From positions 1,426,001-1,490,000 of the forward strand of contig OX597815.1 in the NCBI GenBank assembly GCA_951406725.2: 64,000 nucleotides of DNA, given 5' to 3'. The DNA comes from Octopus vulgaris (taxonomy: Eukaryota). Shown piece after piece: positions 37,691 through 49,040 of the stretch. The position numbers and the translations under genes are program-made. Under the pieces are notes generated by a model. It did no database searches. It was given only the letters and a program-made list of their open reading frames with translations, and had not been told where the DNA came from. Within the stretch, counting starts at the first letter, position 1; each line of letters opens with the position of its first letter.

Positions 37691-37717
37691 CCGGAGCTGT
37701 TGGCATCGGCCCATAAC
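37691..37717 (-). CDS. LITAF: LITAF-like gene, 27-nt microexon (GYGPMPTAP)
   Basis: ttttatatttttAG|GTTATGGGCCGATGCCAACAGCTCCGG|GTAAGT; phase 1-1, encodes a PTAP motif. Confidence 0.82.
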
Positions 37718-40700
37718 CTAAAAATATAAAATAGTTTTGATAACAATATTAAAGACAACAACAACAACAGTTATGAGAAAAATATTTGGAATATTCAAAG
37801 CCATCTGTTAATAACAATCTACAATTTAGAAATTTGAAAAAGATAACGAGAAAAATTAATTAAAATTTTTTACAATGAGAAATTTCATGAATGGCAATGT
37901 GGTTTCATATCAGAAAGATTTTGATTAGTTTCTTTAACGAGGAAAAGAAATTTAAATTGAAATTTACATTCAGCTTTGTTGGTCTCGTATCCAAATCCCT
38001 GTATGTCGATGTCATATCTGTACAGCTGTTTCGTGTTTATTGTATCTGTACTCCTAAATATATATATATGTAATATCTGTACTTTCGTTATACATACATC
38101 ATACTTGCATTCCTGTGATATATACGTGTCATACCTGTACCTCTCTTGACCTAATTACATCTGCACGTCCCCTCACCAACTCTATGCACTCAGAAATACA
38201 AAACATCACCGTCACAAAATAAAACAAGACAATAAAATAGAGAAGTGAATTTTTGCAATAAAATTATTTTTTAAGTCAGTTTAGTTTATGTGTACACATC
38301 TTCAACTCGTTGTTTTGATTTTTTTTGGTCCAGTCCTCATCTGGTTGTGGGTCCCTTTGGGTTCTCATGTACGAGTGCTGATCTGTTTCTCTTCCCATTT
38401 CTTTATTTCCCCTTCTTCAACCCCTTCTCCTCTATCTATTTACCAATCCCGATACATTTACATATGAAGTGGGTTGGTTCATGATCCTCATTCAACCCAT
38501 TTTCCATGCTGGCATGGGTTGGATGGTTTGGGTGGAAAGTGGCACGGCTGGGAGTGGTGGCGAAGGACCCATACCAGGTTCCAGTCATCTATTTTGGTAT
38601 GGTTTCTGTAGCTGGACGCCCACCCTCAACCATTTCACAGAGTGCGCTAGGTATTTTTCACATGGAACCAGCATGAGTGCTTCTCACGTGTGCCGGCGTG
38701 AGTGCCACCCTCATGGCACTGGCATGAGTGCACCATCATCATTTAACGTCCACTTTTCCATGCTGGCATGGGTCAGATTCTCTATTGTTGAGGCAGATTC
38801 TCTATGGCCGGACACCATTTCTATCACCAATCCTCACCTGCATCCAGGTGAAGGTAATATTTCCTTCCTATGGTCGGAGAAGTTTTAACGCTTGTAGGAC
38901 AGTGATGCTTGTTTACAGCCATCATCTGATGCCAAGACAAGGAGACAGGAATGACCTTAGCAACAACAGGAACAATATCACTATTCTTTACATCAGGAAT
39001 AATAGAAGTACATGTAAATGATGATGATGATGATGATGATGAATAAGAAGATTAAGCAGTTTGCTAATTGAACTCCACAGAAACAAAGATGAAGGGTTGC
39101 AGGAGCTGTTACGGGTTCCATTCTGTGTCCTGGCCATGCACTTCCAGCTGCTTCCTTTCCGCTCTTTTAACCTTTCCCAAAGAGTTATACAGCATCCAGG
39201 CAGCAGTGTGGTAAGAAGTTTGCTTCCCAACCACATCAGTTGTAAGACTATGACCATGCTGGAGCACTGTCTTTATTCTTCTATCAGTTTTGTTGTCACT
39301 TTATGGCTGGAAGTTGGCCTATAATTGAGTGTTGTTGCAGCTGATCTTCCCCGAGTGTATCCTTGAATGCTTGGCTGGTCTGGTAGCATCATTAGGAGTT
39401 CATCCCATGTTGTTGTTTTTTAATGTTACAGTAAGTGTTTTTTATTTTTTCTGATTTCTTTAGGAAAACAGTTGAAGAGTTGAGGACCCCTAAATATTAG
39501 ACTGGCACAATAGAGAGTTTTAGCTTGTGATTTCAAAGATGGTACTTTTGGAAGCTGACAGTAGCCACCAATTCATGCATTAAAATCTTCTCTAATACGG
39601 AAGTTTAGAAAATGCTCCTTCAGGATTTTGCTGAACTGCTAAGTTATGAGGACATATTCAAACCAACAGCAGTTGTCAAGTGGTGGTGGTGGTGGAAGAC
39701 AAACACACACACAAGTGATTTCCATCAACTATATCCACTCAGAAGGAATTGGTTGGCCCAGGGTTACAGAAGAAGACACTTACCAAAGTGCTGTGCAGTG
39801 GGATTGAACCTGAAGCCATGTGGTTCCAAAGTAAGCTTCTTAACAACACAGCCTTGCTTTTATTTGTTTTATCTATTTTTTTTAAAACCTAAAGCATTCA
39901 AACTGGCCAGATCTGTCCTCTCACACCTACCCCACAATGTCTTTCTAAAAATCAACAATTATATCATTGAAATCTCAAAGGTACCAGATAATACACAATT
40001 AATTCAAAACAACTGGAATTAATAAGGATCGCACTTGACAAAATAGTCTGAATGCCAAAGGGTCAAAGAGATCCCTGATTATATCCAATAAACATTATTT
40101 ACTGAATGAAACTAGAATAATGGTTTCACCTTTTGGCACAAGGCCAGCAATTTAGGGGCAGAGTGGGGGATAAGTCGATTGCACTGACCCCCCTCCCATC
40201 CCCAGTGACCAATTCATACTTATTGACCCTGAAAGGATGAAAGGCAAAGTGAGCCTCAGCAGAACTGAACTCACAATGTAAAGAACTAGAACATTTTGCT
40301 GAGTTCCTAGTTCTGCCAGTTTACCATTTTTAGTGAAACTACAATATAATATTGATCATACTGTACAGTTATTGTTTAATCTAAATCTTGACTAATTAAC
40401 TAATCAATATTTTAACTCGTTAATATGCTTAAATGAGCTCTTAACTCTTCAAGACAAGTTTTTTCTAAGATTGAAATGCAGTTAGAAAGTGACTATGGAA
40501 CCAAAAAAGATGGTTTTCTTCTTTGAAGACTTTGGAGAAAGAAAAAAACCCCAACAAAACCTCAAATATCTTTGTTAATTTGTGTTGTTTCTGAAAATGA
40601 ATTGGAGATCCCTGATGAAAGAGTTATTTTCAGAACCATTATATGAAAGAAAGTAATTTTTTTGTTTTGAAATAACATTAAAAAGTGAGAGACAACCATG

Positions 40701-41035
40701 TCATTAGATAAATCATCAAAAGAGATAAAAATATAATGTTTAATGCACAACAGCAGGAAATAAAACATTTGTATAATATAAAGACACGTTCAGTGCTTGA
40801 AACCTGCAATTTATTATTATTATAATTAATAATGATAATAATAATAATAATAATAATAATAGTGATCCAGAAGACAGTATTATTGGGCACAGCTCACATT
40901 CTAAGGAGAATATTGTCTCTTTGAGTCACAGAGGAAGGCACTACTTGAAACCTTTGGTGATTTGTTATTGTCTGCTTTCGAGTAAGGAACATCTGGTAAG
41001 TGAGAACTATGCCAGAGTCTTTCATAATAATAATG

Positions 41036-41069
<34 letters not shown>

Positions 41070-47545: not shown

Positions 47546-47945
47546 TTACTCTTTTACTTGTTTCAGTCATTTGACTGCGGCCATGCTGGAGCACCGCCTT
47601 TAGTCGAGCAAATCGACCCCCAGGACTTGTTCTTTGTAAGCCCAGTACTTATTCCATCGGTCTCTTTTGCCGAACCGCTAAGTGACGGGGACGTAAACAC
47701 ACCAGCATCGGTTGTCAAGCAATGCTAGGGAGACAAACACAGACACACAAACATACACATACATACATACATACATATATATACATATATACGACAGGCT
47801 TCTTTCAGTTTCCGTCTACCAAATCCACTCACAAGGCATTGGTCGGCCCGAGGCTATAGCAGAAGACACTTGCCAAAGATGCCACACAGTGGGACTGAAC
47901 CCGGAACCATGTGATTGGCAAACAAGCAACTTACCACACAGCCAT
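47546..47945 (-). mobile_element. tRNA-derived SINE, near full length
   Basis: Reverse complement of the 15640-16040 family. Confidence 0.88.
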
Positions 47946-49010
47946 AGCTTTGATTTCAATGCTTCACAGATGGCCATCCAGCCTCAAGTCAATCCATATC
48001 CATCTTAGATACTTAAAATAGATTCATCAGTGATAGATTTGTCTCCATCATGAACAAAAGTAATGCAAGCAAACTCTATATAGTCTCTGGAACTGCTAGA
48101 AATAGCAGCAAATTCTTAAAATCACACCTTATTGTCTTAAACAAGGAAAGAATACATACATCCTTACACAATGCTAAAAAGACAGGATGCTCATGGCTGG
48201 AATGTCTTTCATTATAGGTTTACTTGATCTGGACTGACCTACAGTTAAACAACAGCAGGATGAATATAAATTGATACAACTAAACTAAACTCAACAAAAT
48301 CTGGAATAATGGTTTTCTCTCAATTCCTGGATCGAGCAGTGCAGTTTGTTCTGAAGCAAAATGCTCCAATACACACTGCTTCAGTCCATTCAGCTGTAAA
48401 TAAGGACCCTTGTGAAGGGAATGTTGTGACCACGGTCACTTATACCACATGGAAACAAGATGGCCGAGCCCTATTAAGTTTAACGTCCGTTTTCCATGCT
48501 AGCATGGGTTGGACGGTTTGACCGGGGTCTGGGAAGCCAGGAAGCTGCACCAGGCTCCAGTCTGATCTGGCAGAGCTTCTACAACTGGATGCCTTTCCTA
48601 ATGCCAACCACTCCGTGAGTATAATGGGTGCTTTTTATGTGCCACCGGCACAGGTGCCAGGGGAGGCTGGCAACGGCCACGATTGGTTGGTGCTTTTTAC
48701 ATGCCACTGGCACGGAAGCCAGTCAAGGTGGCACTGGCATCGACCACGTATGGATGGTGCTTTTTATGTGCCACCGGCACAGGTGCCAGGGGAGGCTGGC
48801 AACGACCATGATCAGTTGGTGGTTTTTACATGCTGTGGATGAAAATGTAAGTTTGGACAAAATTCACTTGAGTGGATCACTGAAGGTTTTATATCCCAGA
48901 ATTCCATCCGAGTCGAGAGAGACAGAGACAGGGTTTGGATATTGGACCTGTCATTCATGGTTAAACTGTTGCGTAGGAATCTAAAAGGAAATTGTTGAGA
49001 TAATAGTTAC

Positions 49011-49040
49011 CTTGGCCACCAAGGGGAGCTGGTCCATATT
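49011..49040 (-). CDS. LITAF: LITAF-like gene, 30-nt microexon (EYGPAPLGGQ)
   Basis: cttttaatctgtttcAG|AATATGGACCAGCTCCCCTTGGTGGCCAAG|GTAACT; phase 1-1, in frame, Pro/Gly/Tyr-rich like the first coding exon. Confidence 0.78.

Follow-up and report, generated by a model that had tools for sequence, protein, structure and literature searches.

Probable alternative microexons in the proline-rich arm of Ov-Litaf, a LITAF-family gene of Octopus vulgaris, and their possible role in ligase recruitment

The gene discussed here lies on the minus strand of a 64,000-nucleotide (nt) stretch of Octopus vulgaris DNA (GenBank contig OX597815.1, positions 1,426,001 to 1,490,000; this whole stretch is called the window, and positions refer to it unless stated otherwise), which sits on contig C2 of the 2.8-Gb genome. 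It is the studied gene Ov-Litaf and codes for a LITAF-family protein with a proline-rich N-terminal arm; LITAF is known as an adaptor of the endosome type. Four microexons, m1 to m4 in the order of transcription, contribute to this arm, and two of them, m2 and m3, are very probably alternative. It is an evenly balanced proposition that m2 and m3 are separately regulated cassettes that tune the length of the arm and its predicted avidity for WW-domain ligases by degrees, with the ESCRT-I sites fixed. Two alternative exons rather than four give a narrower, testable picture than that of the initial annotation of this DNA, which had all four toggling freely. Public annotation already contains both the gene and its exons, and alternative microexons are already known to edit motifs within disordered protein regions. 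The points worth testing are the PPxY motif made at the m3/m4 junction, the division of regulator elements between m2 and m3, and the mollusc-wide pattern of cassettes with different sequences; these points, and the existing public annotation, were absent from the initial annotation.

The first coding exon (51315..51511, with an acceptor AG just upstream of 51511 and the ATG at 51483) matches public protein P0001, contributes 169 coding nt that end in phase 1, and encodes PPPY, PSAP and PTAP. It is followed by m1 (49011..49040, 30 nt, EYGPAPLGGQ), m2 (44299..44331, 33 nt, AWIPPPPPPPH), m3 (42094..42111, 18 nt, AWAPPP) and m4 (37691..37717, 27 nt, GYGPMPTAP, which brings the third P(S/T)AP). 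The LITAF domain is divided between an exon at 30550..30718, with the CPKC knuckle and the start of a hydrophobic stretch, and the last coding exon at 27699..27807, with GCCLIPF, the HTCPNC knuckle, a terminal YSRL and the stop. All acceptors end in CAG or TAG, those of m1 to m4 are pyrimidine-rich, and all donors read GTAAGT apart from that of m1, which is GTAACT. The tract of m3 is weak (13 of 22 pyrimidines) and its AG-free zone is 96 nt long; that of m4 is modest (14 of 22). The initial annotation had described four phase 1-1 exons of these lengths with canonical AG/GT sites, and this is confirmed on the minus strand and matched by public proteins. Its expectation that every combination would keep the frame also holds, since all 16 subsets run to one common stop and give products of 148-184 amino acids. 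The full product of 184 amino acids was reproduced and is identical to O. vulgaris CAI9716857.1. Three of the subsets are equal, letter for letter, to public O. vulgaris proteins (P0001, P0006 and P0005), and the m1 to m4 junctions are also present in the models of O. sinensis and O. bimaculoides. The abstracts of microexon studies set the upper length either at 51 nt or, strictly, at 3-27 nt; all four exons are within 51 nt, and only m3 and m4 within 27 nt.

It is virtually certain that the four microexons are real, and the identity with public proteins is stronger support for them than the scan for chance exons. Between the flanking exons, a distance of 20.6 kb, a loose scan returned 16 candidates that keep the frame. 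When at least 20% proline and a GTAAG, GTAAC or GTGAG donor were demanded, thresholds picked post hoc with the exons already known, there were 5 candidates in these 20.6 kb versus 5 in 102.9 kb of control DNA. A stricter first scan had missed m3 because of its weak pyrimidine tract. The fifth candidate in the gene, 47853-47833, shares one peptide pattern with all 5 control candidates, and these look like copies of one interspersed repeat. It was therefore rejected as a further hidden microexon, and no other candidate was convincing; a regular expression meant to count copies of the 47853-47833 repeat gave zero matches. At 47853-47833 and elsewhere, an abundant interspersed repeat carries a 21-nt in-frame pseudo-exon of the form AG...GTGAGT (peptide pattern A.G[RW]P.P) with six matches in the window, which is a possible source of new microexons. 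Duplication between m2 and m3 or between m1 and m4 was also considered; the peptides are alike (AWxPPP and YGP), and the DNA of the exons with 150-nt flanks aligns in short matches only, which leaves duplication unproven.

The isoform cluster has 10 members from three Octopus species and consists mostly of gene models. All four microexons are included in three members, m3 is skipped in three, m2 in one and both in three, so that m2 is present in 6/10 and m3 in 4/10. The form that lacks only m2 comes from the eukprot source only. The form that lacks m3 is also GenBank AUR53648.1, which, judging by its name, would be transcript MF467267 of a published paper. RefSeq isoforms rest on RNA sequencing. 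Among sequencing runs, at least 20 entries contain part of 27400-30800; none of these is on record as RNA and 14 are guessed to be RNA, which speaks neither for nor against inclusion. For m2 and m3 the public isoforms thus show inclusion as well as skipping, whereas m1 and m4 are included in 10/10.

What do m2 and m3 change in the arm? The longest run of prolines is 7 with m2 and 4 without it, which bears out the earlier claim that alternative use alters the polyproline content. The effect of m3 is made by splicing: m3 ends in PP and m4 starts with GY, and the junction reads PPGY, a second PPxY, solely when m3 is joined to m4. The PPxY count is therefore two with m3 and one without. The constant PPPY, the PPGY present only with m3 and the three P(S/T)AP motifs fit the proline-rich N-terminal arm of LITAF/SIMPLE, and the part of PMC5095921 that deals with these motifs has PPxY and P(S/T)AP binding ITCH/NEDD4 and ESCRT-I. 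A measurable effect through the junction PPxY is possible, though we think it rather less probable than its absence.

Putative splicing-regulator elements are distributed unequally over the gene. A bipartite QKI/STAR-type element (ACTAAC, then TAAY half-sites) at 44245..44261 on the minus strand lies 38 nt downstream of m2, and two RBFOX-type TGCATG motifs in 41983..42081 on the same strand lie +13 and +106 nt downstream of m3; both are predicted inclusion enhancers. The section of PMC12064062 on these motifs states that QKI and RBFOX binding downstream of an exon promotes its inclusion. ACTAAY or TGCATG occurs within 50 nt downstream of 2/2 alternative donors and within 300 nt of 0/4 constant donors. 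Background rates are 0.044 per 50 nt when either motif counts (about 0.002 for both donors) and, with the stronger pattern, 0.023 per 120 nt. This contrast is suggestive and short of proof because about four motif families were examined. The genome has a gene with a STAR_dimer domain. From these motifs, control of m2 by QKI and of m3 by RBFOX proteins is slightly favoured, and the division of the elements between the two exons would allow independent control.

The proposed mechanism is that tissue splicing factors would switch m2 and m3 while m1 and m4 stay in. A STAR/QKI protein would include m2 and an RBFOX protein would include m3, independently of each other and probably in muscle or neural tissue. 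Inclusion of m3 may raise the avidity for NEDD4-family ligases with multiple WW domains, and m2, when included, may add a Trp and a rigid polyproline spacer and so make the arm longer. All three sites for TSG101 would remain constant, and the effect would likely be that of a dimmer and not of a switch.

Variation of the arm is not confined to octopuses. Single in-frame blocks, mostly of 5-15 residues, vary in the arm in scallops, oysters, mussels, clams, abalones, other snails, two Logan sets and the nemertean Lineus. Nearly all of them can be read with G, A, V or E first, as expected of phase-1 exons ending in G, which suggests that the blocks outside the octopuses are cassette exons; three exceptions, all of them small (1, 3 and 8 residues), resemble differences between compound variants. 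The comparison covers 23 hand-picked isoform sets (15 + 8), and from each of the clusters with 19, 23 and 48 members it draws on 15 listed members. Two genes are mixed in the M. gigas set, and three long M. galloprovincialis models were excluded from the comparison of the 15 sets. None of the 23 sets varies in its number of P(S/T)AP motifs, and in 19/23 that number is zero. The cassette sequences differ by lineage, with W-PPP in octopods, GMYGPP in the Logan sets and YGQP in scallops and oysters. The Logan sets (P0012-P0016 and P0091-P0094) have 0-3 copies of the 7-residue GMYGPP[PST], and their four main forms are found on 12, 13, 31 and 21 contigs. As to the conservation of the exons, which the initial annotation had proposed to check, the junctions recur in O. 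sinensis and O. bimaculoides, and an Argonauta protein with three W-x-PPP units keeps AWAPPPGY. In the tree, octopods and the two Logan sets form a clade (100/95), and its link to the bivalve and gastropod cassette genes is an open fork; an N-terminal PPPYPG common to 15/15 sets is the sole support for orthology with them. In Biomphalaria (P0264 and P0267) an independent 10-residue block, EYPMPPAYLQ, toggles a second PPxY in parallel to octopus m3. In several pairs of bivalve isoforms (P0053/P0102, P0132/P0037, P0123/P0128 and P0144/P0141) the difference is a single residue on the C-terminal side of the first CxxC, which a tandem acceptor at the last exon may explain.

A broader proposal, which we consider doubtful, is that in the LITAF/CDIP1-like genes of molluscs, and perhaps of other lophotrochozoans, an ancient phase-1 intron is a nursery of fast-turnover microexons that tune the arm of an endosomal adaptor by tissue, and that in octopods two such exons are under separate QKI and RBFOX control, one of them making a ligase docking motif at a junction. 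If true, octopods would possess a two-input splicing code for ubiquitin-ligase recruitment.

Several points weigh against the reading of m2 and m3 as separately regulated cassettes. As noted, most of the isoforms are gene models; the CAI models of O. vulgaris were probably made from the assembly studied here and therefore give no independent support. The motif contrast is post hoc with n=6 donors, and a search for Fox-1_C, the C-terminal family of RBFOX, found nothing and was uninformative. In the portion of PMC3033906 that concerns human LITAF, a mutant of one PY still binds Itch, Y61A makes no significant difference and binding is lost in the double mutant alone. The number of PPxY motifs varies in only 4/23 isoform sets, three from Octopus and that of Biomphalaria, and it is therefore not the conserved purpose of the cassette.

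The strongest alternative is that the variation is tolerated: a disordered arm of Pro, Gly and aromatic residues would accept duplicated short symmetric exons, and skipping them would have little functional effect. We consider this unlikely, yet it has the best claim among the alternatives. Turnover of the cassette sequences between lineages is complete, changes in the PPxY count are rare and there are none in the P(S/T)AP count, and a single PY is enough for Itch binding according to the same portion of PMC3033906. Against it, the same two exons are skipped in three Octopus species, and the regulator motifs are found solely behind these two. The first coding exon of a second LITAF-domain gene of the same genome (G000:C5 93890237-93910950, L005-L007; 167 amino acids as joined, on a long tree branch) encodes PSAP, PPPY and PPNY and is followed by the same phase-1 intron, but a scan found no comparable proline-rich microexon cassette there.

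It could also be, with a somewhat smaller probability, that the number of aromatic-plus-proline repeats sets weak multivalent binding, to ALG-2-like partners or through condensation, and that no single motif matters. In the comparison of 15 sets, arm length and aromatic count vary in 15/15 and the short motifs are fixed in 12/15. The passage on ALG-2 in PMC7865452 reports that human CDIP1 binds ALG-2 via the arm motif PQPGF, to which PPPGY at the m3/m4 junction is similar. However, the ABM-2 consensus given there has F or W where octopus has Y, and in octopus the exons raise the number of aromatics by only 2 (7 to 9). The cassettes of the different molluscs offer a natural comparison for asking what is under selection: particular motifs, the length and valency of the arm, or nothing at all.

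The model of the initial annotation, with four freely toggling exons and tuning of TSG101 binding by the 27-nt exon, is improbable. All 16 subsets are in frame, rare isoforms can escape gene models and the m4 tract is modest, but only 4/16 combinations were seen, m2 and m3 alone are skipped, and the 300 nt downstream of m1 and of m4 are free of QKI- and RBFOX-type motifs. Since m4 is present in 10/10 isoforms, each with three P(S/T)AP motifs, the third P(S/T)AP does not toggle on the evidence at hand; the other two are constant in any case, and the motif is absent from most of the isoform sets. Exons of the SRRM3/4 programme have a UGC within 25 nt of the acceptor, and here the 25 nt in front of each of the four acceptors contain no TGC (the nearest is at -28, in front of m2), which argues against this programme. 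Membership of m1 to m4 in the SRRM3/4 (eMIC) neural microexon programme is thus highly improbable, even though m3 has 18 nt, a weak tract and a long AG-free zone and the programme is described as ancestral in bilaterians in the relevant part of PMC10551640.

The identity of the gene rests on its LITAF domain. The PF10601 profile gives 37.1 and 46.1 bits for the two 3' exons, with a curated cut-off of 23.8, and the knuckles CPKC (residues 119-122) and HTCPNC (169-174) flank hydrophobic residues 140-161 (22 residues, mean hydropathy 2.6). The C-terminus is YSRL, which may be read as a sorting signal. No relative was found in the PDB at E up to 1. The domain architecture agrees with the account in one part of PMC5095921, where this domain is a monotopic membrane anchor, stabilised by zinc, with two knuckles around a hydrophobic stretch of about 22 residues. 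The label LITAF/CDIP1-like can be kept as far as the family is concerned; the NCBI names in the group mix LITAF and CDIP1, and the tree (46 rows, 88 columns), built without the human proteins, has open forks. Past the stop by about 2.5 kb, a cluster of AATAAA/ATTAAA at 25040-25219 on the minus strand is a candidate end of a long 3' untranslated region. Elsewhere in the window, at 6507-9459, a 2.95-kb degenerate (CCA)n array with about 985 copies at a match of 76% gives rise to a strong skew in GC and AT.

The public Octopus LITAF homologs (CAI9716855-57, AUR53648.1, XP_036356589.1 and XP_014772878-81.1) are the same gene with the same exons. In the passages of PMC5736919 and PMC4199593 that deal with Ov-Litaf, it is used purely as an expression marker. 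The forward primer for quantitative PCR in PMC5736919 matches once, at 30627-30646 in the first LITAF-domain exon; the published amplicon lies within a constant exon and is therefore blind to splice forms. Literature searches, whose coverage left out most subscription journals, the home of mollusc LITAF cloning papers, found no microexon or isoform analysis of Ov-Litaf and no account of the cassette. The main text of bioRxiv 10.64898/2026.09.05.749416, which includes O. bimaculoides, is without LITAF or CDIP1, and its supplements may list these exons. For mussel LITAF, a passage of PMC4101229 suggests alternative splicing plus duplication, and one of PMC3308963 allows LITAF-like contigs as possible splice variants; neither passage describes microexons. 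Mollusc LITAF transcripts that have been counted as several genes or as one marker may include splice forms.

Human LITAF/SIMPLE and CDIP1 likewise have a proline-rich arm with PPxY and P(S/T)AP, a two-knuckle domain and a 22-residue hydrophobic stretch. Human LITAF has two PPxY motifs, whereas in octopus the second is made by splicing, and the ALG-2 motif of CDIP1, PxPG[FW], has no match in the octopus protein. On the side of splicing, the nearest likeness is to microexons regulated by QKI and RBFOX2 such as that of Snap23, which, in the section of PMC12064062 that covers it, is also a short alternative exon of a trafficking gene with downstream ACUAAC and UGCAUG. In octopus, by contrast, the two putative elements are divided over two neighbouring exons.

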